Source of the DNA: Candidatus Staskawiczbacteria bacterium RIFCSPLOWO2_01_FULL_38_12b
GTDB taxonomy: Bacteria > Patescibacteriota > Minisyncoccia > Minisyncoccales > Staskawiczbacteraceae
Assembly: GCA_001820255.1 (NCBI GenBank)
Contig: MHPA01000016.1
Coordinates: 7,288-58,758 of the forward strand
Direction of reading: 5' to 3'
Length of the DNA stretch: 51,471 nt
How positions within the stretch are numbered: position 1 is the stretch's first letter; the number at the start of each line of letters is the position of its first letter. The position numbers and the translations under genes were made by a program. Below, piece by piece: positions 10,104 through 26,494 of the stretch. The notes beneath the pieces were generated by a model. The model did not search any database. It was not told the origin of the DNA and was given only the letters and a program-made list of their open reading frames with translations.

Positions 10104-11168
10104 TTACCCCAATAAATTTTTAAGTTCCATTGGATTGGCAGAATAATCAATAGCGCTTTTTGGAGAAATTTCTTTTCTTCTTACCAGGTCAATTAATGCC
10201 CTATTTAAAGAAATCATGCCGTCTTTACTGGAAGTTTCAATGACTGCCGGTATCTCATGATTTTTATTTTCTCTTATTAAATTAGAAATCGCATTATTGC
10301 AAAGCATCACTTCGCATACTGGAATAAATCCTCCGTTAATTCTGGGAATCAGTCGTTGGGAGATAACCCCCAAGAGCGACCCTGCCAACTGAAACCTAAT
10401 TTGGTTTTGCTGTTCAGCGGGAAATACGTCAACCATCCGGTGGATTGACTGGGAAGCTGAATTGGTATGGAGCGTTGCAAATACCAGGTGTCCCGTTTCG
10501 GCGGCGGTTATGGTAGTGGAAATCGTTTCAAGATCCCTCATTTCTCCTACCATAATGACATCGGGGTTCTGGCGGAAAGTAGCTTTTAGGGCATTGGCAA
10601 AGCTATTGGTGTCGGTTAACACTTCCCTTTGCTCAATAACGGATTTATCGCCCTGATAAATATACTCTATGGGATTTTCAATGGTAATAATATGCATCGC
10701 CTTGGTATGGTTTATTTCATCTAAAAGAGCTGCTAAGGTAGTTGATTTACCTTGCCCGGATGCGCCGGTAATCAATAAAAGCCCTTGGGATTTATGGGTA
10801 AATTCATGTAAAATAGGAGGGAGGTGCAAATCTTCAATCGTCCTTATTGTTGAGGAAATAAGGCGCAAGGCCAAGCTTATAGAATCTCTCTGAAAAAAAA
10901 TATTCACACGAAACCGTGCTTGTCCATCAAAGTCGTAGGAAAAATCTATTTCTTTTTCCAGCAAAAACTTTTGTTTCTGCGGTTCGGTTAGCAGGGCAAA
11001 GGCAAATCCCTTGGAAACCTCAGCGGTAACTTTCTTTTCATCAATCAAAGGGATTAACTGTCCTGTAATTCTTATGACGGGCGGATGGCCGATTGAAATA
11101 AGCAAATCGGAAGCTTCTTGCTCAATAGTCATGCTTAAAATTTTTTTAAATGTTTGCAGATAATCCAT
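10104..11168 (-). CDS. pilT: Type IV pilus retraction ATPase
   Basis: 354 aa. Walker A GASGQGKSTT, Asp box, Walker B IMVGEMRD, His box ATLHTN. There is no N-terminal GspE_N domain, which is the PilT-type architecture. Confidence 0.88.
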   Translation of the reverse strand: MDYLQTFKKILSMTIEQEASDLLISIGHPPVIRITGQLIPLIDEKKVTAEVSKGFAFALLTEPQKQKFLLEKEIDFSYDFDGQARFRVNIFFQRDSISLALRLISSTIRTIEDLHLPPILHEFTHKSQGLLLITGASGQGKSTTLAALLDEINHTKAMHIITIENPIEYIYQGDKSVIEQREVLTDTNSFANALKATFRQNPDVIMVGEMRDLETISTTITAAETGHLVFATLHTNSASQSIHRMVDVFPAEQQNQIRFQLAGSLLGVISQRLIPRINGGFIPVCEVMLCNNAISNLIRENKNHEIPAVIETSSKDGMISLNRALIDLVRRKEISPKSAIDYSANPMELKNLLG

Positions 11169-11180
11169 AACTTAAATGAC

Positions 11181-11270
11181 TAATTAACCTAATTATTCTA
11201 ATTAATCTAAATAAATCTCAATTCTTTAAAGTTTAGAATAATTAGAGCAATTAGAGTAATTAGGTTAATT
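11181..11270. repeat. Hairpin built from inverted tandem 9-mers (ATTANTCTA units)
   Basis: Left arm TAATTAACCTAATTATTCTAATTAATCTAAA, right arm TTTAGAATAATTAGAGCAATTAGAGTAATTAGGTTAATT. It fills the pilT / REC-gene spacer. Confidence 0.85.
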
Positions 11271-11635
11271 TATTTTAAAATTTCTTTTACTGCCTTAATG
11301 ATATCTTCCGGGGTGCTCTGTATCTTTAAAAAATATTTAATTACTCCCAAGTGCGCAATATCATCAAGGTGTTCTTGTTTATCAAGATTTGAAACAATGA
11401 TTACTTTTAGATTTTTTAAACTTTGATCGCTTCGTATGGTTCTTAAGAGTTCCCACCCATCCATGTTGGGTAAAATAATATCTAACACCAATAAATCGGG
11501 GTAATTATTTTTTAATTTTTCCAAAGCCATTTTGCCATCTTTTGCGGTATCTATCAAAAAACCCTCCTTCCGAAACTGGTTGGCATAAATGTCTACAATA
11601 AATGGATCGTCTTCGACTAATAAAATCTTTTTCAT
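11270..11635 (-). CDS. Stand-alone response-regulator receiver (CheY-like)
   Basis: 121 aa. ILLVEDD acidic pocket, LLVLDIILPNMDG phospho-acceptor Asp, IIVSN and K residues. No output domain. Confidence 0.85.
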   Translation of the reverse strand: MKKILLVEDDPFIVDIYANQFRKEGFLIDTAKDGKMALEKLKNNYPDLLVLDIILPNMDGWELLRTIRSDQSLKNLKVIIVSNLDKQEHLDDIAHLGVIKYFLKIQSTPEDIIKAVKEILK

Positions 11636-11654
11636 AATTTCTTGTGAGAAATTT

Positions 11655-11735
11655 CCTACGAATTACGAATCTTTGCGAATTACGAATACGGTTTTCGTAT
11701 TATTCGTAATTCGCAAAGATTCGTAATTCGTAAGG
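11655..11735. repeat. Hairpin built from inverted TACGAAT heptamer units
   Basis: CCTACGAATTACGAATCTTTGCGAATTACGAATACG pairs with CGTATTATTCGTAATTCGCAAAGATTCGTAATTCGTAAGG (stem of about 36 bp with small bulges). It fills the REC-gene / pilB spacer. Confidence 0.9.
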
Positions 11736-11740
11736 GTTTT

Positions 11741-13462
11741 TTAGGTTTCTTGCGTAACCCTAATGACTTCATCAACGGTGGTTTGTCCGGACAACACGTT
11801 AATAATGCCTTCTTGAGCCATGGTTAACATTCCTTCTTTTTGGGCTTGTTTTAAAATTAAGGATTCTTCCGGATTTTTTAAAATAATATCAATGATTGCC
11901 GGAGATATTGATAACACCTCAAAAAGACCCATCCTCCCTTTGTAGCCTTTAAAATTACATGATTCACAACCCTTGATTTCGTAAATGGATAGCGAAGGCG
12001 AAACACTAATATCCTTTTTGGCAAATGCGGGCATATCCTTTAAAATTTCAAAAATATATTTTTTTACTTTTTCACTGGGAGTTACTTTCTTTTTACATCT
12101 TGAGCAAAGGGTCCTTATCAATCTTTGGGCGATTACCACCCTTAAGGTAGAAGGGATTAAAAAGGGACGCACCCCCATATCGATTAACCTTGGGATAACC
12201 CCCACGGCAGAATTAGTGTGGAGTGTGGACAATACAATGTGCCCGGTCAGGGCAGCGTTAATCACCAAGCCGGCAGTTTCTTCGTCCCTGACTTCTCCCA
12301 CCATAATAATATTGGGGTCTTGTCGTAAAATCTGCCGCAACCCCTCGGCAAAACTATAGCCGATATCGGCTTTAATCTGGGATTGATTAACCCCCGCAAT
12401 GGAATATTCAATAGGGTCTTCAATAGTAACCACATTCACCGTTTCCTGGTTTAAAATACGCATCAGGCCATAAAGGGTGGTGGTTTTTCCGGATCCGGTC
12501 GGACCCGAAGATAAAATCAACCCATAAGGCATTTTTAAAGCTTTTTTGATAATTTCAAGATTCCTTTCGGAAAATCCCATTTTATCAAAAGGTTTTAACC
12601 CTTCTTCAGGATCCAATACTCTGATTTCAACTTTTTCTCCATATAAAATAGGAAACGTAGCTACTCTAAAATCAATTTCTTTATTATTAATTTTAGCTGA
12701 AAACCTGCCATCTTGGGGTATTCTGTTTTCATCAATTTTGAGGTTGGACAAAATTTTAATGCGCGACACAATAGAAGGGTGTACGCTTAAAGGTAAAAAA
12801 AGGCTTAAATGCAAAACTCCATCCTGGCGAAACCGAATATTGAGCCTTTCACGATTGGGTTCAATATGGATATCAGACGCCCCCCCCTCAATGGCGTGGC
12901 GCAAAATAACCAGCACCATTTTTATAACCGGAGCTTCCTCGGTGATTTTTAACGTACTTTGATCTTGTTCTAATGAATCAGCACCCTCTTTGTTGTCCTC
13001 TTTTAATTCTTCTAATGCTTTTTTCGTTTCTATTTCTAGGGTCTTATACTGCTTTAGTATATTATTTAAATCGGAAAACGTAATGAGGTGAATTTCGTAG
13101 ACAAAATTCTCTTTTCGACTTAAAAACCTTAACGCATTCTGGCTGGCAATATCTTCCGGATACACCATTCCTATGCCAACGGTATTGCCTTTTTTAAATA
13201 ACGGAACCATCTTATAATTTAAGGCGGCAGCTCCGGATATTAACTCCAGCACCTCCTGGGGAACCTCTTTTTTTTCAAGCTTGATAAGGGGCACATTCAC
13301 AAACTTGCTTTTTAGTTCAAATAAAGCATTTTCAGAAATAATTTTATTTTCAAATATAATCTCCTCTTCCGTTTTACCGCGGCTTTTCATATCAGCAACG
13401 AGCTGATTCATTTTTTGATCGCTTATAATGCCATTGCCGTATAATTCTTGAATTAATTTCAT
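11741..13462 (-). CDS. pilB: Type IV pilus assembly ATPase (GspE/PilB family)
   Basis: 573 aa. N-terminal T2SE_N-like domain, Walker A SSGPTGSGKTTT, IMVGEVRD, STLHTN, and the tetra-Cys motif CSRC...CESC. Confidence 0.9.
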   Translation of the reverse strand: MKLIQELYGNGIISDQKMNQLVADMKSRGKTEEEIIFENKIISENALFELKSKFVNVPLIKLEKKEVPQEVLELISGAAALNYKMVPLFKKGNTVGIGMVYPEDIASQNALRFLSRKENFVYEIHLITFSDLNNILKQYKTLEIETKKALEELKEDNKEGADSLEQDQSTLKITEEAPVIKMVLVILRHAIEGGASDIHIEPNRERLNIRFRQDGVLHLSLFLPLSVHPSIVSRIKILSNLKIDENRIPQDGRFSAKINNKEIDFRVATFPILYGEKVEIRVLDPEEGLKPFDKMGFSERNLEIIKKALKMPYGLILSSGPTGSGKTTTLYGLMRILNQETVNVVTIEDPIEYSIAGVNQSQIKADIGYSFAEGLRQILRQDPNIIMVGEVRDEETAGLVINAALTGHIVLSTLHTNSAVGVIPRLIDMGVRPFLIPSTLRVVIAQRLIRTLCSRCKKKVTPSEKVKKYIFEILKDMPAFAKKDISVSPSLSIYEIKGCESCNFKGYKGRMGLFEVLSISPAIIDIILKNPEESLILKQAQKEGMLTMAQEGIINVLSGQTTVDEVIRVTQET

Positions 13463-13488
13463 GTTCTTTAAGTTTCAAGCTTTAAGTT

Positions 13489-13893
13489 TCAATAAGAAAC
13501 AAAAGGCTCGCTTCTACCTAAGTTAACTTCTTTTAACATTAAAACCCTATAGCCGGATTTTTCTAAAAGCTTTTGAGCGTCCTCGTTGGTAGCCGCTAAA
13601 ATGGTACCACTCATTTGCTGGTCATCTTGATCTTGGACAATGTAGTCAAATTCAGTTTCCAATCGGGTAAATGGTTCTAAAGCTTTAACTTTTTCGGAGT
13701 CTAGAATCTTAAAATTTATCACCACATCCGGCTGATCAAAAGACATATCGGGGGGGATATTTTTATTTTTATTAATAAGTTCGGGAAGAAACATTACCAG
13801 AGAAATAGCGATAAAAATAAAAAACAGTGAAACCATCATGATTCCAAAAAACATTCTTTGTCTTTTTTTGGGTGATATAAAAACTATGGCCAT
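13489..13893 (-). CDS. Single-pass membrane protein of the pilus operon (function unknown)
   Basis: 134 aa with one N-terminal TM (FFGIMMVSLFFIFIAISLVMFL). It sits between the pilO-like gene and pilB with short spacers. Confidence 0.5.
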   Translation of the reverse strand: MAIVFISPKKRQRMFFGIMMVSLFFIFIAISLVMFLPELINKNKNIPPDMSFDQPDVVINFKILDSEKVKALEPFTRLETEFDYIVQDQDDQQMSGTILAATNEDAQKLLEKSGYRVLMLKEVNLGRSEPFVSY

Positions 13894-13945
13894 ATTCTAG
13901 GGATTTTTCTCAATTTTTAAGATATAAAGTTCCATATTCAAACAA

Positions 13946-14500
13946 TTAATACGTGTGGGTTTGTAATTCTAACACAAAATCATATATTTTTTGCTGGTTT
14001 TCTAAAGTGGCTACATCTTGGGAGGCGGAAGGCGACCTGAAAGAAATAGAGCTTAATTCAAATAATCGCACCGATTTATCTAATGAAGAAAGGAAATTTT
14101 TTAAACTCGCATAATTTCCCATTATATTGATTCTGAAAGTGACATTTCTAATTTTATGTTCAGCCGTAGGTGGAGAAATTTTTGAAAACGTTACTGACCT
14201 TACTATCAATCCATTTTCTTTTCCCTTTTTTTGAAAAAAGAACACCAATGGGGCAAGGGAAAAATCCGTAGGTAAGGCAGCATCAATATTTGCCAGGGAG
14301 TCTTGTTTGCTTTCTATTATAGCAACGAGATTTGCTATGTTTGAAAAATAAAGAGCCTTGCTATTATATTCTGCCTCTTTCTTATATAAGCTATTTTGCA
14401 CATCGCCAACTTCTTGGTATTTGGGAATTACAAAAAGAAATACCAATATTGATGTGATAAAAATAATGATGACCGTAGAAGTTAATTTATTTATTTCCAT
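13946..14500 (-). CDS. PilO-like pilus alignment protein
   Basis: 184 aa. N-terminal TM, a coiled-coil segment, then ALPTDFSLAPLVFFFQKKGKENGLIVRSVTF. The position after the pilN-like gene fits pilMNO order. Confidence 0.55.
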   Translation of the reverse strand: MEINKLTSTVIIIFITSILVFLFVIPKYQEVGDVQNSLYKKEAEYNSKALYFSNIANLVAIIESKQDSLANIDAALPTDFSLAPLVFFFQKKGKENGLIVRSVTFSKISPPTAEHKIRNVTFRINIMGNYASLKNFLSSLDKSVRLFELSSISFRSPSASQDVATLENQQKIYDFVLELQTHTY

Positions 14501-14505
14501 GATTA

Positions 14506-15132
14506 TTAATTACTGATGTCGCTTGAACTTAATGGACTTTCGCCAACATCTGTTTGCTCGCTTGATGGTGCTTGGTAAAAACCAACAAAACCATTGGGGT
14601 AATAACTAAAGAGGGCGGGATGCAAAGAAAGCTCCAGGGTAAATGTAGTTTTTCCATTTCCAGAAACCTGGGAATTTAAAACATCAACAGCATTAATATA
14701 GTCCTTGCTATCCTCAAATATATGCACTTGATGGCTTAGTATTTCCATATTTTCTGACTCTCCGGATAATCTAACCTTGTTTTGAACTTCAGAAACATCA
14801 AAACTTGAAAACCAGACTTTTGGCAAAGTTTTTTGTTCTATGAAGCTAAAAATATTGGAAGAAATCTTGTGGTTGTCAACAAGGATATTGAATTCTTCTA
14901 TTTTTCTTTTGTAATCAAGCACTTTTTTTTCATTTGCTTTTTCCTGCTCGGTGCCATAGGCAAGCATTTTTTCTTCAAGCTTGCTTATCTTTTGATGCTG
15001 GACATATATTTTAACCGTAAAAAGGAGGTAACAAAAAATAGCGATCAGCAATAATCCGAATGCAGCATAAAAAACAGGATCCATCCATTTTAATTGCTTG
15101 TCTTTTAATTGGTACAATGATCGAAAATTCAT
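14506..15132 (-). CDS. PilN-like pilus alignment protein
   Basis: 208 aa. Short cytoplasmic N-terminus, one TM (VFYAAFGLLLIAIFCYLLF) and a coiled coil. It lies directly downstream of pilM. Confidence 0.5.
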   Translation of the reverse strand: MNFRSLYQLKDKQLKWMDPVFYAAFGLLLIAIFCYLLFTVKIYVQHQKISKLEEKMLAYGTEQEKANEKKVLDYKRKIEEFNILVDNHKISSNIFSFIEQKTLPKVWFSSFDVSEVQNKVRLSGESENMEILSHQVHIFEDSKDYINAVDVLNSQVSGNGKTTFTLELSLHPALFSYYPNGFVGFYQAPSSEQTDVGESPLSSSDISN

Positions 15133-15144
15133 AGTTAATTAAAT

Positions 15145-15263
15145 CAGAAATTCGAATGTCGAAATTCGAAAAAAATTTAAATTACCAAAATTCAAAATCT
15201 AAAATGCATTTTAGTTATTTAAAGATTTGGATTTTTGATTTGTTTCGGATTTCGAGTTTCGTG
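15145..15263. repeat. Imperfect hairpin with 7-nt periodic arms (GAAATTC / GAATTTC-type units)
   Basis: The left arm reads GAAATTC GAATGTC GAAATTC GAAAAAA ... AATCTAA AATGC. The right arm reads GCATTTT AG... GATTTGT TTCGGAT TTCGAGT TTCGTG. The centre is AAAATGCATTTT. Confidence 0.7.
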
Positions 15264-15298
15264 CTTCAAGCTTACTTCATTATACACCAAAAATAATA

Positions 15299-16366
15299 CT
15301 ACTTCTCCAGTCCTCCCAAGGCCACCCCTGTCGCCGCTGAAAACCTGGGAGCCATTATCTTAAGGGTTTGGTCAAGAATCGGGGGGTATAAAAATTCTGA
15401 AAAACAATTTGGAACGTATACTTCTTTTTTAAGGCTTTCGGCAAAATACTCTTTTAATCCCGGCAGATTGGCCGTGCCTCCTGTCAAAAAAATTTCGTCA
15501 ATTTGCTTTTGCCCTCCGTGCAAAAACTCAGCACAAACGCCTTTTATTTCAATTAAGAGGGGAGACAATAAAAGATATAAGGTTTTAACTACGTCGCTTC
15601 TTGGATGCAAAAGTCCTTCTTTATTTTTTATGTTTTCTGCTTGATCCAAAGCTACCCCCAATCCAGAAGAAACCACATTTGATAATTGGCTGCTGTTAAA
15701 GGTGAAACTGTAGCTCTTTTTTAAAAAACCTTTTTCAATAATGTTTATGGTTGAACTCTGAACTCCGATATCCACCAAGCAGACTATTTTTTTATTATTT
15801 CTTATCAACGCCCTGGTAATACCCAGCGCTTCGGCTTCCAGGGCGTATAACTGGAGACCGGCCATTTTTGCCATGGCCTGATACTCTTGGATCACTTGAT
15901 TTGGCACCGCCAGTAAAAATACTCCAAATGAAGAATTTTTACTACCGGGTGAATTTGGCATTATCTTCCAATCCAAGGTAACCTCCGAAATGGGCAGGGT
16001 GATGTATTGAGATGCATTATAACGGATGGCTTCCGGAATTTCTTTTTCCGTCATAAAAGGAATATCAAACGAAGTGCAAAATGTGGAAAAATCAGGTATG
16101 GAAAAAATGGCTTCTTTTGTTTTTATTTTTGCCTCCTCTAAAATTCCCCGTATGGCCTCTGAAGTAACATTATTTGAAAGCAAGTAACTGCCCTTTTGGG
16201 TATTTGACAAGGATTCCTTGTAAAGATATTCTGATTTTATCTCGCCGTAATTTTCCAATGTTTTGCCTTCCCCCCAGCGGGAAATTTCCACCACCTTAAC
16301 AGAGGAAGTGCCAATATCCACCCCGATCATTTTTTTAGGGAAAAACATTTTAAAGGGATTAAACAT
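15299..16366 (-). CDS. pilM: Type IV pilus assembly protein PilM (actin-like ATPase fold)
   Basis: 355 aa. IGVDIGTSSVKVVEI phosphate-1 motif, VCLVDIGVQSSTINI, and IFLTGGTANLPGL. Confidence 0.85.
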   Translation of the reverse strand: MFNPFKMFFPKKMIGVDIGTSSVKVVEISRWGEGKTLENYGEIKSEYLYKESLSNTQKGSYLLSNNVTSEAIRGILEEAKIKTKEAIFSIPDFSTFCTSFDIPFMTEKEIPEAIRYNASQYITLPISEVTLDWKIMPNSPGSKNSSFGVFLLAVPNQVIQEYQAMAKMAGLQLYALEAEALGITRALIRNNKKIVCLVDIGVQSSTINIIEKGFLKKSYSFTFNSSQLSNVVSSGLGVALDQAENIKNKEGLLHPRSDVVKTLYLLLSPLLIEIKGVCAEFLHGGQKQIDEIFLTGGTANLPGLKEYFAESLKKEVYVPNCFSEFLYPPILDQTLKIMAPRFSAATGVALGGLEK

Positions 16367-16562: not shown

Positions 16563-17306
16563 ATGACATACCCAAACCATGTGGATAAAGTAAAAACATT
16601 ATTATTGGAATTACTTTTTCCTTCTTTTTGTTTGGGATGCCAAAAAGAAGGCACTTATCTTTGCCTGGATTGCAAATCTGTTTTGGAAATTTCGGAATTT
16701 AATTATTGCTTATGCAATAAAAATCCTCTGCGCCTGCCCAATGACAGCAACCATGGCAAGTGCCAAAGATGCCAGGATAAAAAGTTATCCGGCTTGTATT
16801 TTGCCTTGCCCTACAAAGAAAAGTTCCTTACCAGAAAATTAGTGCGCCAGTTTAAATATTCGCCGCACATAAAAGCTTTAGCAAAACCTCTGGCCGGTAT
16901 TTTACTGGAACACTTTATAATAACCGGCAAAAATACCAACGAAATTTGGAATAATAGCCTTTTAGTACCGGTTCCTATGGAAATAAAAAAATTAAAAAGC
17001 CGCGGATACAATCAGGCAGAGGGGTTAGGAAAAGAGCTAGGACATATGGTAGATGTCCCATTGGTTTTGGATAATTTAGTTAAAATAAAAAAGACCTTGC
17101 CTCAAATGGAACTTTCGGCAAAAGAACGGATGCAAAATGTAAAAAACGCTTTTTTGGTAAAAAATCCCAAGGAAATTTCCGGCAAAAAAATATTTTTGAT
17201 TGACGACGTCTATACTACCGGATCCACCATGGAAGAATGCGCCGGCGTCCTGCGGGACGCCGGCGCCAAATCCGTCTTTGGAATTGCCATCGCCCGAGAG
17301 GGCTAA
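16563..17306 (+). CDS. comF: ComF-family protein (phosphoribosyltransferase domain, competence-associated)
   Basis: N-terminal Cys-rich zinc motif (CLGC...CLDC...C..C), LVPVP, and the PRT motif IFLIDDVYTTGST. It is divergent from pilM. Confidence 0.85.
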   Translation: MTYPNHVDKVKTLLLELLFPSFCLGCQKEGTYLCLDCKSVLEISEFNYCLCNKNPLRLPNDSNHGKCQRCQDKKLSGLYFALPYKEKFLTRKLVRQFKYSPHIKALAKPLAGILLEHFIITGKNTNEIWNNSLLVPVPMEIKKLKSRGYNQAEGLGKELGHMVDVPLVLDNLVKIKKTLPQMELSAKERMQNVKNAFLVKNPKEISGKKIFLIDDVYTTGSTMEECAGVLRDAGAKSVFGIAIAREG

Positions 17307-17334: not shown

Positions 17335-18906
17335 CTAAAGATCGTTTCCCGAATAAGACAAATTAAAACTTTTGTTAATTAAAGGAAAATCCGGCACCAC
17401 ATTTAAAGGACCAGCTTCTCCAACCAAGGACCAATTTAAAAATGACGGATCACAGGGCGCAACCCTGCTTATGTTCCCCGCCAAGTCAGTGGTGATAACA
17501 TATATTATTTGACCTCTCCATCCTTCAACCATGCCAATGGCCAGGGCATTTTTTTTAAATACCGTGGTATTGCGAGGGGTCAAGATGGGGCCCTTCGGTA
17601 ATTTAGTTAATGCATTTTGAATAAGGTTCATTGAAGCATAGACTTCTTTAACACGGACCCGAAATCGGGCATACACATCACCGCCCGACTCAGTTTCGAT
17701 GGTATTAAAACCTAATTCATCATAGGCCGCATAGGGAAAATCAACACGTATATCGCTCAAAATGCCCACTGCTTTGGCGGCAACCCCCAGGGCGCCGTAA
17801 TCTTTAGCGGTTTTTGGCAAAAGCACGCCGGTGCCTTTTAATCGATTTAAAAGCGAGGCGCTATTTTGGGCAATTGCAATGATTTCAAAAAAATCTTTTT
17901 GTATCTTTTCAAGGTCTTTGCCTAAAACAATTATTTCTTTGGCATTAATGTCTTTGGTAACTCCTCCAATAGTGTTTACATTGCGCAAAAATCGGCTTTT
18001 GGTCAGCCTTTCATTAATTTGCATGATCATTTCTCGTAACCTTGCCCCATTTGCACCGCCAAAATTAAATCCCGTATCAATCATGATGGCGCCAATATCG
18101 CCAAAATGGTTTGCCAGCCTTTCTAATTCTGCATATATAACGCGTAAATAAAGAGCACGTTTTGGAGGCAAAGCATCGCTTAATTGTTCTGCCGCTTGGC
18201 AAAAAGCCAATGAATGGCTAAACGAACTATCACCGGAAATTTTCTCACAAAGACGTAATTTATTACTAAGGGGAAGCGTTTCAAATAACTTTTCACTGCC
18301 TTTATGGACAAATCCAAGTTTTGCTTCCAAGAGCATAATTTCTTCTCCAGCCACGCTAAACCTAAAGTGGCCCGGCTCTATGATTCCCGCATGGATCGGG
18401 CCGACGGGAATTTCATATATCCCTTCACCCTCAACTTTTTGGAATTGATAAGTTCCATGGATTTCTTTTACTTTTGTCTGCCAGTCAAAATCCTTTCTTA
18501 ATGGGAATAGATTAGCCGGCCAGTTTTCATGCAAAATGATGGGTCGCAGGTCGGGATGCAAAACAGGAGTGAGGCCAAAAAAAGTGTGTATCTTTTTTTC
18601 AAAATTACAAGCGCTATGGATAGCCGGGGTCAGTGAAGGAAATGTAACGGTATTTTGCAGACGAATAAAAGGCACCACAAACATATTTTTTTTTGAAATG
18701 CCAAACACATACCAAATTTTAAACCCCTCTTTTTCTGCTCTTTCGTCAGTTGCGGTGATTAGGTGCAGTGGCAGGTTTTTATTAGCATGCAAATTAGTTG
18801 CGATTTCTTTGATATGCAAAGCTGGCACTTCAAAGAAAGCGATATTGCCGCAAATTTCAACTTTTACGTTTTTGGGGAGGTATTGTTGTATGTCTTCTAT
18901 ATTCAT
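17335..18906 (-). CDS. Fused NuoC-like / [NiFe]-hydrogenase large-subunit-like protein (HycE/HyfG/NuoD family) lacking all four metal-binding Cys
   Basis: The N-terminal 30-kDa (NuoC) domain is followed by YEIPVGPIHAGIIEPGHFRF. The L1 position reads EKISGDSSFSHS instead of ERxCGxCSxxHS. The C-terminus reads SFNLSYSGNDL instead of S.DPCxxCxDR. Start chosen at the Met at 18906, because the track start overlaps the upstream gene. Confidence 0.85.
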   Translation of the reverse strand: MNIEDIQQYLPKNVKVEICGNIAFFEVPALHIKEIATNLHANKNLPLHLITATDERAEKEGFKIWYVFGISKKNMFVVPFIRLQNTVTFPSLTPAIHSACNFEKKIHTFFGLTPVLHPDLRPIILHENWPANLFPLRKDFDWQTKVKEIHGTYQFQKVEGEGIYEIPVGPIHAGIIEPGHFRFSVAGEEIMLLEAKLGFVHKGSEKLFETLPLSNKLRLCEKISGDSSFSHSLAFCQAAEQLSDALPPKRALYLRVIYAELERLANHFGDIGAIMIDTGFNFGGANGARLREMIMQINERLTKSRFLRNVNTIGGVTKDINAKEIIVLGKDLEKIQKDFFEIIAIAQNSASLLNRLKGTGVLLPKTAKDYGALGVAAKAVGILSDIRVDFPYAAYDELGFNTIETESGGDVYARFRVRVKEVYASMNLIQNALTKLPKGPILTPRNTTVFKKNALAIGMVEGWRGQIIYVITTDLAGNISRVAPCDPSFLNWSLVGEAGPLNVVPDFPLINKSFNLSYSGNDL

Positions 18907-18920
18907 AATGATGGGTACGT

Positions 18921-20390
18921 TTAATAATGCGCAGCGATATTGCCAAGCAATGTATATAAAAATGGCGGAATGTAAAAACTCAAACATAACACCAAAATAA
19001 TAAGCATGGCAGGGGGAAGCAAGAGCCAAATACTTTCTTTTTCTGTTTTCATATCGGCGGGAGCCTGTCCAAACACCATGGCGCTGGCGTGTTTTAAAAA
19101 GCCGATAAATAAAATCGTCATCAATACTATAATCGTAACAACGATAAAAAGATGGTTTTTGATGCCGGCAGAAAGAATGAATAGTTTAGTAAAAAATATT
19201 CCAAATGGAGGCGCACCGGTTATGGCAAAAAATCCGGTCAAAAAGAGTGCCGCCGTAATGGGAATAGTACTCATCGCCCCTTTGACATTGGCGATTTTGG
19301 CAGAATGATATTTAAGAAGCAGATTCCCTGATGAGAAAAAAAGCGCCGATTTAATAAAAGAATGGTATATCATGTGAAGCATGGCCGCAAAAATACCCAA
19401 TCCCCCAAACCCAAAACCAAGAGCCATGATTCCCGCATTTTCAATGCTTGAGTAAGCCAATACCCTCTTGTAATTCCTGGCAACAAAGATAATGGCCGCG
19501 GCAATGGCTACTGACAGCAAACCAAACGCCATAAATAAATTTTGGCTAAATGACGGCCCTGCCACCGCATCGGTTATTATTTTAAATTTCAAAATAATGG
19601 CAAAAGCAACCGGCAATAAGGCTCCCGAAAATAATGCGCCAATAGGAGCAGGTGTTTTACTGTAAGCATCCGGTTTCCAGGTATGCATTGGAGCAAATCC
19701 CACTTTAGTTCCATAACCCACAAAGACAAAGATAAAAGCCACTTTAATAACCAAAGGGTCAAGGCTGGCGGCATTTGCGGCAAGCGCCTGCCAGCTGACA
19801 AGCTCGTTTGCGGGAAACAAATTAGCGGCGGGAAAAAACAACAACGTCCCAAAAAATGCCAGCAGTATGCCAACAGAATTGATGATTAAATATTTCCATG
19901 CGCCTTCAATAGCGGAGGGCTTATTATAAAAACTGATTAAAAACGCTGTAGAAAGGGTGGTAGCTTCAATAAAAATCCAAGCAAATATGGGGCTGGAAAC
20001 GGTAATAGCCAAAAACATCATCGCCATAAAAAGATTCAATAAAATAAAGTATTCCCTTACCCTTGACTGCAGATGGCTTACCCCTGAAAATCCGATGATA
20101 TTTTTAGCGGTTTCTTGGCGAAGGTACTCAATAGAATACACGGTCGCAGCAAAACCGACAAACGCAATAATAAGCATCACCACGGCTGCCAGCGCATCCA
20201 CAGAAAAAAATGAAGAATCGTACGTGCCAAAACGGGCAACCTGAAAAGAAATACTCATTGACGCCAATAATGCAACGCCCGAAGCAATCAGCGAAGAGAT
20301 TTCAATAACCCTTCTATGCCCAGACAAAAGGCACAGCAGTGTTGCGATAAAAAAAGAAATAAAAATAAATAGTAATTCTGTATTGTACAT
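18921..20390 (-). CDS. Proton-conducting antiporter-like subunit (HyfF / NuoN / MrpD family)
   Basis: 489 aa, about 14 TM segments, with the motifs GAPPFGIFFTKL and MHTWKPDAY typical of NuoM/N/Mrp-type subunits. Confidence 0.85.
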   Translation of the reverse strand: MYNTELLFIFISFFIATLLCLLSGHRRVIEISSLIASGVALLASMSISFQVARFGTYDSSFFSVDALAAVVMLIIAFVGFAATVYSIEYLRQETAKNIIGFSGVSHLQSRVREYFILLNLFMAMMFLAITVSSPIFAWIFIEATTLSTAFLISFYNKPSAIEGAWKYLIINSVGILLAFFGTLLFFPAANLFPANELVSWQALAANAASLDPLVIKVAFIFVFVGYGTKVGFAPMHTWKPDAYSKTPAPIGALFSGALLPVAFAIILKFKIITDAVAGPSFSQNLFMAFGLLSVAIAAAIIFVARNYKRVLAYSSIENAGIMALGFGFGGLGIFAAMLHMIYHSFIKSALFFSSGNLLLKYHSAKIANVKGAMSTIPITAALFLTGFFAITGAPPFGIFFTKLFILSAGIKNHLFIVVTIIVLMTILFIGFLKHASAMVFGQAPADMKTEKESIWLLLPPAMLIILVLCLSFYIPPFLYTLLGNIAAHY

Positions 20391-20415
20391 ATAGTTTACT
20401 TTAAATTACTTCAAA

Positions 20416-21063
20416 CTAATCTTTTAATTTCCTCATATCGGTGACATCAAGCGATCCAAAATGCTGGTAAATCATTGATACAAACATGGTGGCGATAATG
20501 AGCCAGATAGAAATATCAAACAGAATGCCAATCTGCAAGCTGGGCGATTGTTCCAGTCCGGCAAAAATAGCAAAAGCCACAATACTGTTTTCCAGCGAAA
20601 GAATACCGATGATTTGCGATAGTGCGCTTTTACGGTTGATAATCAAAAAAAGTGATAAAAAAATCATAGAAAGCGCCAGCGAAAGCAACATTTCATGAGC
20701 AGGAATAATACTGGTAAGCGGTGCGAATCTATAAGAATGGGCTATGGCGGCAAGCATGGCTAAAATCGCAAGCGTAATAGGAGTATTTAAATAGGTGCTT
20801 GCGGAAAATATCAATTCATTTTTTTTAATTAATCTGATAAAAAATCCTGGCGCCAAAATTACCTTGACGGTAAATACCAACAAAGCAATAAACAACAGCG
20901 AAATATAACCGGTTTCAAAAAAGGAATTAAGCAACAGTATCACGATGGTAAAAGACTGGACTGCGTATGCAAAAACCGCATCAAGGTTCTTTTTTGAAAT
21001 ATGCAAAAAGACAATGGTTAAAAAAATGATTTGCAATAAAAATTGTAAAAATAAAATATTCAT
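20416..21063 (-). CDS. Hydrogenase-4 component E-like small membrane subunit (HyfE / NuoK-related)
   Basis: 215 aa, about 7 TM segments, sitting between the HyfC-like and HyfF-like genes as in hyf operons. Confidence 0.65.
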   Translation of the reverse strand: MNILFLQFLLQIIFLTIVFLHISKKNLDAVFAYAVQSFTIVILLLNSFFETGYISLLFIALLVFTVKVILAPGFFIRLIKKNELIFSASTYLNTPITLAILAMLAAIAHSYRFAPLTSIIPAHEMLLSLALSMIFLSLFLIINRKSALSQIIGILSLENSIVAFAIFAGLEQSPSLQIGILFDISIWLIIATMFVSMIYQHFGSLDVTDMRKLKD

Positions 21064-21076
21064 TTAACAAATAGAA

Positions 21077-22009
21077 TTAATGTATCAGAATAATAGCCAC
21101 GACGTTAAAAATAAAAGCAATAATTAAAAGATCGGGCAAGCGAAAAAATCGAAACTTGGCGATACTCGATTCTAATACGGCAATCACCAAGCAAAAAATA
21201 ACTATTTTTATCATAAAAATAACCATGCCCAGCATAACTGCACTAATACCGGCACTTTGGGCTATACCCAAAGGAAAAAACAGATTGGAGGCTAAGGCGA
21301 TAAAAATAAGAAGTTTGTTGGCCGACGCCCATTCCATAAGCGCTAATTTTTTCCCTGAATACTCTAAAATCATCGCTTCATGGATCATGGTCAACTCCAA
21401 ATGGGTGGCCGGATTATCAAAAGGGAAACGGGCGGTTTCAGCTAGTAATACTATAAAAAACCCGAAAAAGGCAAGGGTGCCGGAAAGCAAATATTGGCTC
21501 TGGTAAAGTAAGCCGGTTTGGGAAATGGTAAACACATTAGTACTACCGCTAATAAGCGCGACCGTTAATAGTGAAAAAATAAATCCTCCTTCTGCCAAAG
21601 CAGCTACCGTCATTTCGCGGCTTGAGCCAAATCCCCCAAATGCACTGCCGGTATCAATCCCCGCCAGTGCCAAAAAGAATGTGCCAATGGCAAGGGTGTA
21701 TATGATAATCAACAAGTCCCCGGTAACAGTATTATTAATAAATGATGCAAAAAGCGGAATGCTTGCCCCTATGATAATGGTTACGGTAAAAACAATATAG
21801 GGTGCGCATCGGAAAATCCACGAAGCATCTTTGCTTATTACTTCATCTTTATGGAAAAGTTTCCATAAATCCTGGTATGGCTGGAAAATTCCGGCTCCTT
21901 GGCGATTTTGAAGTTTGGCTTTTATTTTTCTGATAATGCCAACACAAAGCGGCGCCACGGCTGGCACCAATATAATTTGAATTATCCAAATAATAATATC
22001 AATAAACAT
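21077..22009 (-). CDS. NuoH / HycD / HyfC-family membrane subunit
   Basis: 310 aa. RFPFDNPATHLELTMIHEAMILEYSG matches the conserved NuoH/HycD loop (PFD..E.E.EL..G...EYSG). Confidence 0.85.
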   Translation of the reverse strand: MFIDIIIWIIQIILVPAVAPLCVGIIRKIKAKLQNRQGAGIFQPYQDLWKLFHKDEVISKDASWIFRCAPYIVFTVTIIIGASIPLFASFINNTVTGDLLIIIYTLAIGTFFLALAGIDTGSAFGGFGSSREMTVAALAEGGFIFSLLTVALISGSTNVFTISQTGLLYQSQYLLSGTLAFFGFFIVLLAETARFPFDNPATHLELTMIHEAMILEYSGKKLALMEWASANKLLIFIALASNLFFPLGIAQSAGISAVMLGMVIFMIKIVIFCLVIAVLESSIAKFRFFRLPDLLIIAFIFNVVAIILIH

Positions 22010-22011
22010 GG

Positions 22012-24060
22012 TTATAATACAAAAAGCAATGAGATTATTAGGGCAATAAAAATATAAAGAATATACATATTGGTATTGCCACTTTGAATGCTTTTCACCC
22101 GTAAAGCTATGAGGCTAACCATTCGGTTAAGCGGTTGGTAAAAATAAGACTGATAGACATCTTGGACTCCCAAAGTAATGGTACGGGACTTTGGCAAATA
22201 CCGGCTTTGCGCATCATGGTATTCAATGTCATGTTGGATGCTAGGCCTTAAAATACCCTTAAAAATAGTAACAATTGAGCGGGAGAATCCCGTAGCGGTT
22301 ATTTCCATGCGGCCGGTTAAATCAGTTCCGCAATCCCAGGTCGCTCCAGTTTCAATTTTTTGATTTTTATTAATAACAAATGTAACAATATAAAACACCA
22401 AGCCGGCCACAAACACAAAACATATACATAAAAAAAGTAAAGAAACAGATCCAAAATTATTCCCCACGACAACCTGTTGGCCGGATGATGAGATTAAAGA
22501 AGCGGTACCTTTAAAAATAGCAAGGTTTTTCCCGACGCTTTCCAAAAACACCACTACATGTGAAGATCCTATTCCAAACAGAAGGCATAGCAGTGCCATT
22601 GCACCCATCCCAATACGCAAAGAAAGGGAAGATTCTTTAGCGCCGCTTGTGTGACTGCTTCTTGGGCGGGCTAAAAATGTCACCCCGAAAGCTTTGACAA
22701 AACAAGCTAGCGCCAATCCGCCGGTAAATGCCAGTGAGCCGGCAGCCAAAATAAAAATCCATTTTTCATACAAAGATAATGATGCTATCCCCAAAAAAAG
22801 CGACTGAAAGGTTAGCCATTCACTGAAAAATCCATTAAAGGGAGGAAGCGCAGATATTGCCATGGATCCGACAAGAAAAAAGAATGCGGTGTAGGGCATA
22901 TATTTAATAAGGCCTCCATATTCTTCTATGTTGCGTGTATGCGTTTGATTAATAACGGAACCGGCGCCCAAAAAAAGCAGGGATTTAAACGTGGCGTGAT
23001 TTAAGGTGTGGAAAAGCGCGGCAGTAAGGCTTAAAAGCGCCAGCGGCAACATATTAAGCGACAAAAAAGTCAGCGCACCGCCAAGCCCCAGCAAAATAAT
23101 GCCGATATTTTCTATGCTGTGGTAGGCCAACAGCCTTTTTATGTCATGTTCGGTAAGCGCATACAGCACTCCCAGCAAAGAAGATATTGAACCCAAAACA
23201 AGCAACGCAAGCCCCCACCACACCGGAACCGGCCAAAGCATGCCAAAGAAAATCCTGATCATCATATAAATGCCGGTTTTAATCATTACGCCAGACATTA
23301 ATGCCGAAACATGCGAAGGGGCGGCCGGATGGGCATCGGGAAGCCAAATATGAAACGGGACAATACCGCATTTTGTGCCAAAACCAATAATAGTGAAAAT
23401 AAAAATCGTATTTTTTATGGATAAGGGAATAGAAGAAGCGCCAGATTGTATAGCCTCAAATTCAAACGAACCGGTAAATTTATATAACAATAAAGCGGCG
23501 GTTATAATAAAAGCCGTGCCGACATGAGTCATAATGAGATATAAAAAACCGGCTTTCACGTTTTGCGGGTCGTTACGATCGTAGACCACTAAAAAATATG
23601 ACGTAATAGACATGACCTCCCAAGCAATCAGAAAAAAGAGCCAATTTGAAGAAGATACCACTAAAAGCATTCCTAAAATAAACAGGTTATAAAAAAATCC
23701 GAGAGCGCCAATATCATACTTTTTATAAAAATGCTTCACGTATCCGATAGCATACACAGAACAAAAAAGAGAAATTAATGAAATAATAAAAATAAAAAAG
23801 GCGGACAACTTGTCGATATGAAAAGATAACGAAAAAAACGGCACAGCAAATGCGCCCAAAGAAAAAGACAAGTCATCGCCGCCAGACGCCATTAACGCTA
23901 CAAAAAAAAGTCCAGAGAGGGATCCCAATATAGCAAAAAAATGACTCCAAATATTGGCAAACGTATCGTGCTTTCTCAATAATAAAGCTCCGATACCTCC
24001 TATGGCAAAAAATGATAATACTGCGACAAAAGTTATTTGAGAAATAATACTATTTATCAT
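22012..24060 (-). CDS. NuoL / HyfB / HycC-family antiporter-like subunit
   Basis: 682 aa, more than 15 TM segments, with FHIWLPDAHPAAPSHVSALMSGVMIKTGIY and HTLNHATFKSLLFLGAGSV motifs. Confidence 0.85.
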   Translation of the reverse strand: MINSIISQITFVAVLSFFAIGGIGALLLRKHDTFANIWSHFFAILGSLSGLFFVALMASGGDDLSFSLGAFAVPFFSLSFHIDKLSAFFIFIISLISLFCSVYAIGYVKHFYKKYDIGALGFFYNLFILGMLLVVSSSNWLFFLIAWEVMSITSYFLVVYDRNDPQNVKAGFLYLIMTHVGTAFIITAALLLYKFTGSFEFEAIQSGASSIPLSIKNTIFIFTIIGFGTKCGIVPFHIWLPDAHPAAPSHVSALMSGVMIKTGIYMMIRIFFGMLWPVPVWWGLALLVLGSISSLLGVLYALTEHDIKRLLAYHSIENIGIILLGLGGALTFLSLNMLPLALLSLTAALFHTLNHATFKSLLFLGAGSVINQTHTRNIEEYGGLIKYMPYTAFFFLVGSMAISALPPFNGFFSEWLTFQSLFLGIASLSLYEKWIFILAAGSLAFTGGLALACFVKAFGVTFLARPRSSHTSGAKESSLSLRIGMGAMALLCLLFGIGSSHVVVFLESVGKNLAIFKGTASLISSSGQQVVVGNNFGSVSLLFLCICFVFVAGLVFYIVTFVINKNQKIETGATWDCGTDLTGRMEITATGFSRSIVTIFKGILRPSIQHDIEYHDAQSRYLPKSRTITLGVQDVYQSYFYQPLNRMVSLIALRVKSIQSGNTNMYILYIFIALIISLLFVL

Positions 24061-24217
24061 ACCTCTAAGAAACTGTTTAGTAACCCCATATTTGCGCTAA
24101 AGTTATTTTTCCCGGCTGCAAATTTGCTGTCATTCGTCGGCTTGCCACACGGGCAAACCTCCTTACGCTATCAAATTTTCGCTCAGGAAAAAAAACTTTA
24201 TCATCAAAAGAGGGTTA

Positions 24218-24745
24218 TTAAACAGTTTCTAATATTTCAAGAATATGTAAAAGTCCGTAAAGAATTGCTTTAGGGCTTGGCGGATCTCCCGGAATAGCAT
24301 AATCTACCGGTATCAGGGCATTGACTCCACCAACAACCGCATAAGAATTTTTATAGATACCGCCGTCTATGGCATCATCGCCAACCGCTACTACAATTTT
24401 TGGATTAGGGGTTGCTTGGTAAGCTCTTGTTAAAGCTTCTGCCATATTACAAGTTACCGGACCGGTTACCAAAAGCATATCCGCATGCCTTGGCGAAGCA
24501 ACAAAATGGATTCCAAAACGCTCAATATCATAAAAGGCATTGGAAAGAGCAACCAGTTCCTGTTCGCAAGCGTTATCGGAACCGGCATCTACTTGCCGTA
24601 TCGCCAAGGAACCCTTAAATAATTTCCTTACCTTTTGTTGTATTTTTTCACCGATAACGATAATTTCCGTTTGCTCTTTGGTAATCTCGGTTTTTGAAAT
24701 AGTGAGCCTTGGATTTTTTAGTATTTTTAAAAAAAGTTTAAACAT
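24218..24745 (-). CDS. NuoB / HycG-like small subunit with Fe-S ligands replaced (Cys to Asp at 3 of 4 positions)
   Basis: DIERFGIHFVASPRHADMLLVTGPVT is the NuoB/HycG core. The ligand positions read GSDNACE (canonical GSCNGCE), VGDDAIDGG (G.CA..GG) and IPGDPPSP (PGCPP.P). Confidence 0.85.
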   Translation of the reverse strand: MFKLFLKILKNPRLTISKTEITKEQTEIIVIGEKIQQKVRKLFKGSLAIRQVDAGSDNACEQELVALSNAFYDIERFGIHFVASPRHADMLLVTGPVTCNMAEALTRAYQATPNPKIVVAVGDDAIDGGIYKNSYAVVGGVNALIPVDYAIPGDPPSPKAILYGLLHILEILETV

Positions 24746-24863: not shown

Positions 24864-24951
24864 TGGCGGAGAGGGTGGGATTTGAACCCACGAGACTCGT
24901 AAGAGTCGCGGTTTTCAAGACCGCTCCGTTAAGCCGCTCCGGCACCTCTCC
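24864..24951 (-). tRNA. tRNA-Ser (anticodon TGA), CCA encoded
   Basis: Manual fold of the reverse complement: acceptor GGAGAGG/CCTCTCC, anticodon stem GCGGT/ACCGC with loop CTTGAAA, long variable arm GACTCTTACGAGTC, T arm GTGGG-TTCAAAT-CCCAC, then GCCA. Confidence 0.9.
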
Positions 24952-25021: not shown

Positions 25022-25435
25022 TTGATGAGGGTTTCAGTTTCAAGAATAAAAATCGTAATATTTTGTAATGAAAAACTAGGATTAAAAACAGGTAATAAAG
25101 TCAAACAACAAGTTGATATCCCAAATTGGATTAAAGGTAACCTAGAATTTGAAAAAGCATGTATGCGAGGCTTAATGGATACTGATGGATGCGTTTTCCA
25201 TGAATGCCATAATATAAAAGGCAAAAAATATTGTTATCCAAGGCTTTCTTTTGTGACAGCCTCAATACCTTTACGAAATTCTGTTGTTGGAATCTTGCAA
25301 AAATTACATTTGAACCCCAAGATTAGAGGCACCAATCAAAGGTATGTACAAATAGAAGAAAAAGAAAAAATCAAAGAATATTTCAAGTTGATTGGAAGTA
25401 GTAATCCTAAACACTTGAATAAATTGAATTTTTGA
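25022..25435 (+). pseudogene. LAGLIDADG homing-endonuclease remnant (C-terminal half only)
   Basis: IPNWIKGNLEFEKACMRGLMDTDGCVFH carries a LAGLIDADG-type motif (GLMDTDG) about 50 aa into a 137-aa TTG-start ORF. No first-domain sequence is present. An in-frame stop lies at 25004-25006, just upstream. Confidence 0.6.
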
Positions 25436-25453: not shown

Positions 25454-25536
25454 AGGAGGAGTCGCATAACGGTATTGCAAAGGATTGCTAATCCTTGCCC
25501 TTTCGGGGGCCTGTGGGTTCGATTCCCACCTCCTCC
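25454..25536 (+). tRNA. tRNA-Ser (anticodon GCT)
   Basis: Manual fold: acceptor GGAGGAG/CTCCTCC, 3-bp D stem GCA/TGC, anticodon stem AAGGA/TCCTT with loop TTGCTAA, variable arm GCCC-TTTC-GGGGGC, T arm GTGGG-TTCGATT-CCCAC, discriminator G. Confidence 0.85.
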
Positions 25537-25576
25537 GCTTTTGTAATTAATATCGAAGATTAACTCTTATTTAGAC

Positions 25577-26494
25577 ATGCATAACCAAAAAGGATTTATT
25601 AATGTTATATTGCTCATTATTGCAATCCTTGTTTTTTTGGGCGCAGGGACTTATATTGCCTTGTATCAAAAAATAATAAATCCGTTTCCGCTAAGGCCAA
25701 ATCCCATACCCGTAGTATGCACCCAGGAAGCAAAACAATGCCCCGATGGTTCGTACGTAAGCCGCACCGGCCCAAATTGCGATTTTGCATCGTGTCCGAC
25801 AATACATCCAACGCAAAATCCCAACGAAAAACAAATCTCTTTACAAGAAGGACAGCGGGAAGCATCGCTATTGATCCAAAAAATTTATTCTGACTACGTA
25901 ACGGGCCTTAATTATCCTGAATATCCGGTAGCAACGAATCAGGGCTATCCCATAACCTTGCATATTGGAGAAACCGCCAGCAATGGATGCACCATCACTT
26001 TGACACTTATTAAAATTAATGGAGACACTGCTGTATTTACAGAAAAAACAGATTTTAACAGAATTTGCCCGATATGCCTTGCAAAAAATACATTAATTAA
26101 CACGCCTGGCGGCACAATCCCTGTACAAAATTTGCAAGAAGGAATGGCAGTTTGGAGCGTTGATGAATTTGGAAATAAAATTTCTGCCATCATTACCAAA
26201 ACCTCAAAAACTCCCGTTCCAAAAGACCATCAGATGGTTCATATCATTCTTAAAGATAAACGGGAAATTTTTGCCTCGCCAGGGCATCCCGTTGGAGACG
26301 GCAGGATTTTCAACGACCTTTTTATTGGCGACTTGCTTGATGGAAGCCGCATCATAACTGCAGAAAAAACTTTGTACGATAAAAGTTACACCTACGACAT
26401 TTTACCCTCCGGGCCAACGGGATTTTACTTTGCCGGATACAATACTGCACCCGGCTCTGCCAACGGAATTCTTATAGACAACACGCTTCACTAA
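25577..26494 (+). CDS. Membrane-anchored secreted protein with a C-terminal Hint (Hedgehog/intein-like) domain
   Basis: N-terminal TM (FINVILLIIAILVFLGAG), a Cys motif CTQEAKQCPDGSYVSRTGPNCDFASCP, and a beta-rich middle. From Cys167 onward: CLAKNTLINTPGGTIPVQNLQEGMAVW (Hint block A), SPGHP (block B-like), and YDILPSG...NGILIDNT (C-terminal blocks). Confidence 0.6.
   Translation: MHNQKGFINVILLIIAILVFLGAGTYIALYQKIINPFPLRPNPIPVVCTQEAKQCPDGSYVSRTGPNCDFASCPTIHPTQNPNEKQISLQEGQREASLLIQKIYSDYVTGLNYPEYPVATNQGYPITLHIGETASNGCTITLTLIKINGDTAVFTEKTDFNRICPICLAKNTLINTPGGTIPVQNLQEGMAVWSVDEFGNKISAIITKTSKTPVPKDHQMVHIILKDKREIFASPGHPVGDGRIFNDLFIGDLLDGSRIITAEKTLYDKSYTYDILPSGPTGFYFAGYNTAPGSANGILIDNTLH

Follow-up and report, generated by a model that had tools for sequence, protein, structure and literature searches.

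What can a complex built like a membrane-bound [NiFe] hydrogenase still do once the residues that should hold its metal center are gone? The question is raised by a 51,471-nucleotide stretch of DNA from Candidatus Staskawiczbacteria bacterium RIFCSPLOWO2_01_FULL_38_12b (contig MHPA01000016.1), referred to here as the window, on whose minus strand Pfam and NCBIfam identify six co-directional genes, EhrS-A-B-C-D-L (24745..17335; Table 1). We are very confident that this operon encodes an Ehr complex of the type found in the Candidate Phyla Radiation (CPR) and not a hydrogenase, the match to the CPR clade of Jaffe et al. 2020 being made by the description of that clade (PMC7304191). As to what the complex does, the reading that we favor, with a probability of roughly 0.55, is that of a redox-independent, complex-I-like ion translocator tied to the ATP-synthase-based balance of the ion gradient, i.e. 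of the proton-motive force.

That the [NiFe] ligands are lost in such complexes is already known, since Jaffe et al. 2020 reported a CPR Ehr clade without metal-binding cysteines, which "likely cannot interact with H2"; the alignment in their supplementary figure shows the large subunit only, in its L1 and L2 regions (PMC7304191). What the present analysis adds to that report is the loss of ligands in the small subunit, the lack of a ferredoxin-like subunit, the invariance of ion-translocation residues, and the linkage of the cassette to the genes of ATP synthase (atp).

The former [NiFe] site of EhrL

The large subunit, EhrL, starts by our reading of the sequence at the ATG at 18906. The longer frame proposed by an open reading frame (ORF) lister opens at a TTG at 19029 and was rejected because it would run into the upstream gene, whose end is at 18921; the gene is thus taken to be 18906..17335. 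Among solved structures the best HMMER match of EhrL is E. coli HycE (7z0s_E, E = 2.9e-65), and its AlphaFold2 model (predicted TM-score, pTM, 0.86) is matched to HycE by Foldseek with a TM-score of 0.83 (E = 8.7e-34). By both measures, EhrL is predicted to keep the large-subunit fold of group 4 hydrogenases.

The initial annotation of this stretch, made from the sequence alone, held that the four Ni-Fe ligands have been replaced by Ser, Ser, Ser and Gly, and our alignments bear this out. Namely, in HMMER alignments to solved structures, EKISGDSSFSHS of EhrL lies without gaps on DRVCGICGFAHS of HycE and on ERMCGICSFSHN of P. furiosus MbhL, while SFNLSYSGND lies without gaps on SLDPCYSCTD of HycE, which places Ser224, Ser227, Ser517 and Gly520 at the ligand columns. 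In the alignments to HycE and MbhL no Cys of EhrL falls on any of these four columns; other Cys placed there by an alignment would, by the annotation's own account, have been evidence against its claim. EhrL departs in this way from both group 4 signatures, with Ser224 and Ser227 at the Cys columns of the L1 motif (RxCGxCxxxH) and Ser517 and Gly520 at those of the L2 motif (DPCxxCxxR/H). The annotated reading of 18223-18246 as EKISGDSS agrees with the minus-strand translation, and so does the C-terminus, PLINKSFNLSYSGNDL followed by a stop codon; only the span assigned to the latter has to be corrected, as its 16 residues occupy 17338-17385, whereas 17338-17379 covers 14.

Three other cysteines were considered as replacement ligands and rejected. 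In particular, the column of C220 holds Ser in 55 of 58 clade relatives and that of C485 holds Arg in 50 of 58, while C236, though invariant, is also found in Cys-containing relatives and lies off the ligand columns. Cys485 (17452-17454, minus strand) appears to be a lineage-specific oddity, its column being Arg in 18/18 Cys-containing relatives as well; in hydrogenases, this column is the conserved Arg beside the Ni-Fe site.

Table 1. Coordinates of the Ehr operon, of the former ligand motifs and of neighboring features in the window
Feature	Position	Strand	Basis or remark
EhrL, large subunit, NuoC-NuoD fusion, 523 aa, HycE/HyfG homologue	17335..18906	-	Pfam PF00329 + PF00346
Former L1 motif EKISGDSSFSHS, residues 221-232	18211..18246	-	Ser224 and Ser227 at N-terminal Ni-Fe Cys columns; Asp226 gained
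Former L2 motif SFNLSYSGNDL, residues 513-523	17338..17370	-	Ser517 and Gly520 at C-terminal Ni-Fe Cys columns; C-terminal Arg replaced by Leu
EhrD, HyfF/NuoN-type antiporter-like subunit, 489 aa	18921..20390	-	PF00361; NCBIfam hydrogenase 4 subunit F, 2.8e-117
EhrC, HyfE-like membrane subunit, 215 aa, C-terminal half NuoK/MrpC-like	20416..21063	-	PF00420; NCBIfam PRK11492
EhrB, NuoH/HycD-like subunit, 310 aa, anchors the peripheral subunits	21077..22009	-	PF00146; HycD 7z0s_D, 3e-44
EhrA, HyfB/NuoL-type antiporter-like subunit, 682 aa	22012..24060	-	NCBIfam hydrogenase 4 subunit B, 3.4e-194; HycC, 1.3e-80
EhrS, NuoB/HycG-like small subunit, 175 aa	24218..24745	-	PF01058; alignments to HycG, MbhJ, NDUFS7
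Type IV pilus cluster, after the operon on the same strand	2849-16366	-	PilM, PilO, PilB, PilT-like, PilC, prepilin peptidase, several N-methyl pilins
23S rRNA intervening-sequence family protein, within the pilin gene region	3641-3979	-	
PaaX/Cas2-like domain protein, within the pilin gene region	6549-7064	-	
ComF-like gene (double zinc ribbon and phosphoribosyltransferase domain)	16563-17306	+	Converges on the EhrL gene, 28 bases between stop codons
tRNA gene, upstream of the operon	24867-24951	-	
LAGLIDADG-type homing-endonuclease-like ORF, upstream of the operon	25022-25435	+	
Second tRNA gene, upstream of the operon	25455-25537	+	
Hint-domain protein, upstream of the operon	25577-26494	+	

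Conservation and selection

Taken by themselves, the disappearance of all four ligands and the lack of hyp maturation genes among the annotated ORFs of the window are what one would expect of a decaying pseudogene or relic, i.e. of a hydrogenase that fell out of use, lost its ligands and is now eroding. However, the same substitutions are found in relatives from several phyla, whose identities of 50-81% exclude that they are assembly duplicates of one genome. In the best 120 database homologues (63-81% identity), EKISGDSSFSH recurs exactly in 94 and the C-terminal PLINKSFNLSYSGNDL in 81, and in a 58-sequence sample of the clade the four ligand columns read Ser in 58/58, Ser in 57/58, Ser in 58/58 and Gly in 58/58. 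Asp226, which lies between two former Cys columns, is present in 57/58 of the same sample and is replaced by a hydrophobic residue in the Cys-containing relatives. The latter carry Cys at all four columns in 18/18 cases, and the nearest large subunits with CxxC pairs are only 35-44% identical to EhrL.

What is more, EhrL is most conserved in its former motif segments, where 18 of 23 columns are conserved at the level of at least 95%, as against 35% of columns over the whole of EhrL (p = 2e-5). Fixed differences of the clade from the nearest Cys-containing large subunits are confined to 10 columns, namely the four ligand columns, R222K, S486D, A487P, the replacement of the C-terminal Arg by Leu, and two others. 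Of these, S486D and A487P adjoin the column of the conserved Arg485, and S486D is a further gain of an Asp.

Selection points in the same direction. The ratio of nonsynonymous to synonymous substitution rates (dN/dS) of EhrL relative to the two nearest orthologous operons is 0.093 and 0.080, and that of the other five genes lies between 0.07 and 0.14; these ratios are approximate, with dS close to saturation (about 1-1.7) already against the nearest relatives. All six genes of the operon are under purifying selection. Together with the conserved order and content of the operon and an EhrL frame free of frameshifts and stops, the conserved substitutions and the low dN/dS rule out the pseudogene reading, to which we assign virtually no weight. 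The initial annotation had proposed neofunctionalization rather than decay and had suggested a dN/dS analysis of orthologs as a check. Its proposal stands: the closest relatives carry Ser/Ser/Ser/Gly and not CxxC at the ligand columns, the frame is intact, and the operon and its former motifs are conserved under selection. EhrL itself is 100% identical to an NCBI protein of a Candidatus Staskawiczbacteria RIFCS genome. This genome is part of the groundwater CPR data on which Jaffe and colleagues drew in 2020.

The small subunit and the missing redox modules

The small subunit, EhrS, which the finding of the initial annotation did not cover, matches HycG with 2.2e-32, and its [4Fe-4S] columns are occupied by D57 (24575-24577), C60 (24566-24568), D124 (24374-24376) and D154 (24284-24286). 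In particular, DAGSDNACEQE aligns at the first two cluster cysteines (CNGC in HycG and MbhJ, a tandem CC in NDUFS7), GDDAIDGG at the third (e.g. GACGNSGG in HycG), and IPGDPPSP stands for the IPGCPP.P of relatives. The counts at the four columns over 32 non-redundant members of the clade are D28/T3/S1, C22/A7/T2/E1, D31/G1 and D28/N4; none of the members retains more than a single cluster cysteine, and the C60 column is itself substituted in 10 of the 32. Judging by these alignments, no member of the clade should be able to hold a cysteine-ligated cubane cluster.

In contrast, all four cysteines are retained in the small subunits of the other Ehr types in our sample, i.e. of the outgroup loci L021-L033 (30-40% large-subunit identity) and L094 (45%), which have Cys-less large subunits and a Hyf-like gene order, A-B-(C)-D-L-(x)-S. 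Since the outgroups keep both the small-subunit cysteines and another gene order, the loss of the Fe-S ligands and the position of the EhrS gene at the head of the operon are derived traits of the clade.

The modules that would pass electrons to such a subunit were not found either. In none of its frames does the 51-kb window contain a ferredoxin-type CxxCxxCxxxCP motif, a gene for a ferredoxin-like subunit is missing from operon and window alike, and Pfam searches of most window ORFs of at least 110 aa returned no NuoI, NuoE/F/G, formate dehydrogenase (FDH) or hyp genes. Genes for hyp maturation or for a C-terminal endopeptidase are lacking among the Pfam-annotated ORFs of the window, which covers 51 kb of the genome. 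Finally, at the columns of NuoCD H224 and Y273, whose roles in quinone binding are established in the complex I literature, the aligned sequences carry Ile (43/43) and Gly (43/43), respectively. With no canonical redox-cofactor site left, it is very unlikely that the complex performs canonical hydrogen chemistry or electron transfer. The Asp gains in EhrL and EhrS mean, at the same time, that acidic residues have been acquired in both peripheral subunits, in the region where redox-driven relatives build up charge.

One could still argue that the complex is a hydrogenase or another redox enzyme of an unconventional kind, using substitute ligands (Cys236, His231, Asp/Glu, the Asp triad of EhrS) or being fed electrons by a partner, such as FDH, that is encoded separately. 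Indeed, the surroundings of the old active site include the invariant residues Cys236, His231, Glu221, Asp226 and Asp486, a partnership with FDH has been proposed for the Ehr of Margulisbacteria, in which NuoB is fused to NuoI (Matheus Carnevali et al. 2019; PMC6349859), and Ehr subunits of Geobacter are up on formate (PMC7894505). However, the present clade has no NuoI-like module, its small subunits retain at most one cluster Cys, and a dedicated partner is suggested neither by the window, with its lack of Fe-S motifs and of FDH and NuoE/F genes, nor by the clade loci, among which no neighbor family but atp is widely recurrent. Quinones and electron transport chains are in general missing from CPR bacteria, and a [4Fe-4S] cluster coordinated by three Asp is not known to us. 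What is more, the other Ehr types, which are possibly redox-active, keep their small-subunit cysteines, and this makes the loss in the clade look like a real loss of electron transfer. An unconventional redox enzyme is therefore, in our judgment, quite improbable.

Operon and membrane arm

The order S-A-B-C-D-L is kept in every clade locus that is long enough to show it (50-82% large-subunit identity). The charged residues by which complex I, Hyf and Mrp relatives move ions are invariant in both antiporter-like subunits and in the NuoH-like and NuoK-like ones. Their functional roles are taken from the complex I literature, and residues are given in E. coli numbering. In EhrA, the equivalents of NuoL E144, K229, H334, H338 and K342, as well as the Glu of transmembrane helix (TM) 12, are present in 33/33 sequences. 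EhrD has the TM5 Glu and the TM7 Lys in 40/40 and the TM12 Lys in 36/40. The equivalents of NuoH E157, D213, E220, E228 and R293 are conserved in EhrB, in whose TM5-6 loop E216 has become Ala or Ser and E218 is His in 38/38. In EhrC, which matches MrpC/MbhG-like proteins only weakly (E = 0.043), the LSxEN motif has an invariant membrane Glu.

Several smaller features of the operon may be mentioned here. The gap between the EhrS and EhrA genes measures 157 nt (24061-24217) in the window and about 190 nt in L002, one of the two closest relatives, as against some 10-30 nt in L001, the other, and in most other loci; it gives no Rfam match and contains no convincing terminator. Upstream of the operon, an Rfam search found tRNAs only and no riboswitch. 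The counts of promoters and terminators are at chance level and uninformative. One subclade (L050, L054, L060-L063) has an additional HyfF-like antiporter gene right after the EhrL gene (S-A-B-C-D-L-D'), and a Fibrobacteria-labelled locus (L006, 10502-15502) encodes a second, more distant Hyf-like cluster, A-B-C-D, at 35-39% identity and about 5 kb downstream of the Ehr cassette.

Linkage to ATP synthase

Scans of genomes and metagenomes yielded 65 clade loci, which reduce to 49 non-redundant ones, 35 of them with usable flanks. F1Fo ATP synthase genes lie no more than 5 kb from the cassette in 16 of these 35, and their arrangement takes at least four forms. Namely, atpA-G-D-C may stand directly upstream on the same strand, with only 7 nt between atpC and the cassette in L012 and L074; the cassette may be inserted in the operon itself, as in L014, where Pfam confirms the order atpB-E-F-H-A-G / EhrS-A-B-C-D-L / atpD-C with gaps of 5 nt and 24 nt; convergent atp genes may follow downstream; or atpA may lie 3.5 kb downstream. 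The cassette is appended to or inside an atp operon in L014 (1-13380) and also in L055, L068 and L016, while atp genes are found in the upstream flanks of L004, L005, L012, L039, L072 and L074 and in the downstream flanks of L015, L046 and L065. For comparison, we estimate the chance of such an adjacency in a genome of about 1 Mb at 1-2%. No neighbor family other than atp recurs widely among the clade loci. The ATPase c subunit of L014, read by eye in this one locus from an organism other than that of the window, looks to us to be of the H+ type, with Ile for Gln and E-A-L for E-S-T.

The clade includes sequences labelled Syntrophus, Desulfobacterales, Fibrobacteria and Firestonebacteria and is thus not strictly confined to CPR. 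In a neighbor-joining tree without bootstrap support these loci nest among CPR sequences, a placement from which the cassette appears to have been transferred between phyla. In the Firestonebacteria locus, NrfA-like and ACS/CODH genes flank the cassette, and a Fic-domain protein is encoded 2-3 kb upstream of it in Gracilibacteria and Peregrinibacteria loci (L034, 1347-2375; L035, 2138-3073).

Comparison with known systems

Ehr complexes were reportedly named in Geobacter (by Coppi in 2005) and surveyed by Marreiros et al. in 2013. The present operon has the marks of this group, namely a group 4-like large subunit without Ni-Fe cysteines, co-encoded with NuoB-like, NuoH-like and Mrp/antiporter-like subunits, just as the other Ehr types combine a large subunit without Ni-Fe Cys with NuoB-, NuoH-, HyfE- and antiporter-like subunits. 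Ehr has been placed beside the group 4f [NiFe] hydrogenases (PMC10284858). In the searchable literature we found no mention of the loss of small-subunit Fe-S ligands or of an atp linkage in Ehr; the papers of Marreiros (2013) and Coppi (2005) fall outside of it and may already note Fe-S-less subunits. A paper on electron transport chains in Patescibacteria makes no mention of Ehr genes.

For every subunit, the best matches in sequence and structure are those of E. coli hydrogenase 4 (HyfA-J) and formate hydrogenlyase (Hyc, PDB 7Z0S). Unlike these, the clade has neither Ni-Fe nor Fe-S ligands, and in the window there are no homologues of the Fe-S proteins HyfA, HyfH/HycF and HycB, no FDH and no genes for maturation by Hyp or HycI. 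Those Cys-containing large subunits that are nearest to the clade (ERICGxC ... INKSFELCYSC.DR) share with EhrL the INKSF..Y motif and a short C-terminus that ends at L2.

With complex I, the operon has in common the core of NuoB, NuoD, NuoH and antiporter-like subunits, including the pattern of TM5 Glu, TM7 Lys and TM12 Lys/Glu in the latter, and NuoD, too, is without Ni-Fe cysteines. The clade differs in lacking the ligands of cluster N2 and of the quinone and, as far as the operon and the annotated window are concerned, NuoA, I, J, E, F and G. The Mrp antiporters (PDB 6Z16, 7QRU, 7D3U), in turn, are matched by EhrA at 9e-39 (MrpA) and 3e-33 (MrpD), and the MrpA/MrpD-type subunits of the operon carry the TM5 Glu, TM7 Lys and TM12 Lys/Glu expected of them, whereas Mrp systems have no homologues of the NuoB, NuoD and NuoH that the Ehr operon encodes. 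As the only relatives known to run without redox input, Mrp antiporters may be a functional analogue.

Proposed mechanism

In the translocator that we propose, the six subunits would form a complex that moves ions without redox input. Since no module for energy input is present, it would most likely work in the manner of Mrp, either as a secondary proton/cation exchanger or as a gated path for protons. The former active-site region, i.e. Asp226 and Asp486 of EhrL and the Asp triad of EhrS, could serve as a cytoplasmic site of ion loading or gating above the NuoH channel. As its gene context suggests, the complex would work alongside the F1Fo ATPase in cells that have no electron transport chain. 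The most specific form of this proposal, in which all redox cofactors, from the Ni-Fe site and the proximal Fe-S cluster to the ferredoxin subunit, have been shed and the complex has become, in CPR, an accessory genetically integrated with F1Fo ATP synthase, a cofactor-free exchanger or gated proton path with a carboxylate pocket as its loading or gating site, is to be taken as tentative.

A different possibility is that net ion exchange is not the purpose of the complex. Namely, it could be a non-redox machine driven by the ion gradient, in which ion flow through the membrane arm powers a conformational or chemical task in the cap, such as the vectorial hydration of CO2 in NDH-1/Cup or DAB systems, or in which the cap senses a ligand or pH and regulates the ATP synthase. 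In its favor, the cap and the loops of the former active site are extremely conserved, beyond what a passive plug would seem to need, and the most conserved segments are modelled with low confidence in the isolated subunit, as would be the case for interface or mobile elements; a cassette embedded in the atp operon would fit it as well. On the other hand, neither peripheral subunit contains a catalytic motif, a nucleotide-binding motif or an extra domain detectable by Pfam or NCBIfam, and apart from atp there is no widely recurring partner gene. We know of no precedent for an ion-driven, non-redox role of NuoB/NuoD-type subunits. Such a machine is unlikely in our view, if less far-fetched than a redox enzyme with unconventional ligands.

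Turning back to the redox-independent translocator, a number of points weigh against it. The function of every Ehr complex, this one included, is inferred from sequence and context only. A secondary antiporter is not obviously in need of a conserved peripheral cap, and the strong conservation of the former active site could instead mean another chemistry or ligand; likewise, the three Asp of EhrS could coordinate a metal ion. The AlphaFold2 monomer of EhrL has a predicted local distance difference test score (pLDDT) below 50 at residues 152-202 and 499-523, i.e. it is unreliable at both key segments, so that no geometry of the active site can be derived from it. In the membrane arm, EhrD is without the central TM8 Lys, a trait that it shares with E. 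coli HyfF, and the Mrp-specific subunits MrpB, E, F and G are missing from the operon. As to the link with ATP synthase, the count of 16 out of 35 is inflated by shared ancestry, no atp genes lie near the cassette in the window or in its closest relatives, L001 and L002, and members labelled as non-CPR lack the linkage as well, which makes it frequent and not universal.

A central question for complex I, and equally for membrane-bound hydrogenases, is how the antiporter-like subunits are driven by redox chemistry at the junction of NuoB, NuoD and NuoH, and a natural, compact and cofactor-free version of this junction would serve as a useful experimental system. If the proposed translocator is real, it would offer a natural way of testing if the NuoB-NuoD-NuoH "universal adaptor" can couple to antiporter modules without redox chemistry, and it could explain how CPR cells without an electron transport chain manage the ion gradient around their F-type ATPase.

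Flanking genes

Apart from the features in Table 1, the annotated ORFs of the window belong, according to Pfam, to housekeeping genes and the type IV pilus cluster. A functional tie of the operon to the type IV pilus genes, the ComF-like gene, the LAGLIDADG ORF or the Hint ORF was considered and rejected, these neighbors not being shared with L001 and L002. The stretch of tRNA, LAGLIDADG and Hint genes upstream may be left over from a mobile or intein-related element; L050 has a similar LAGLIDADG ORF close to its cassette. Genes for PilB or PilM are found 4-10 kb from the cassette in L014 and L050, too.

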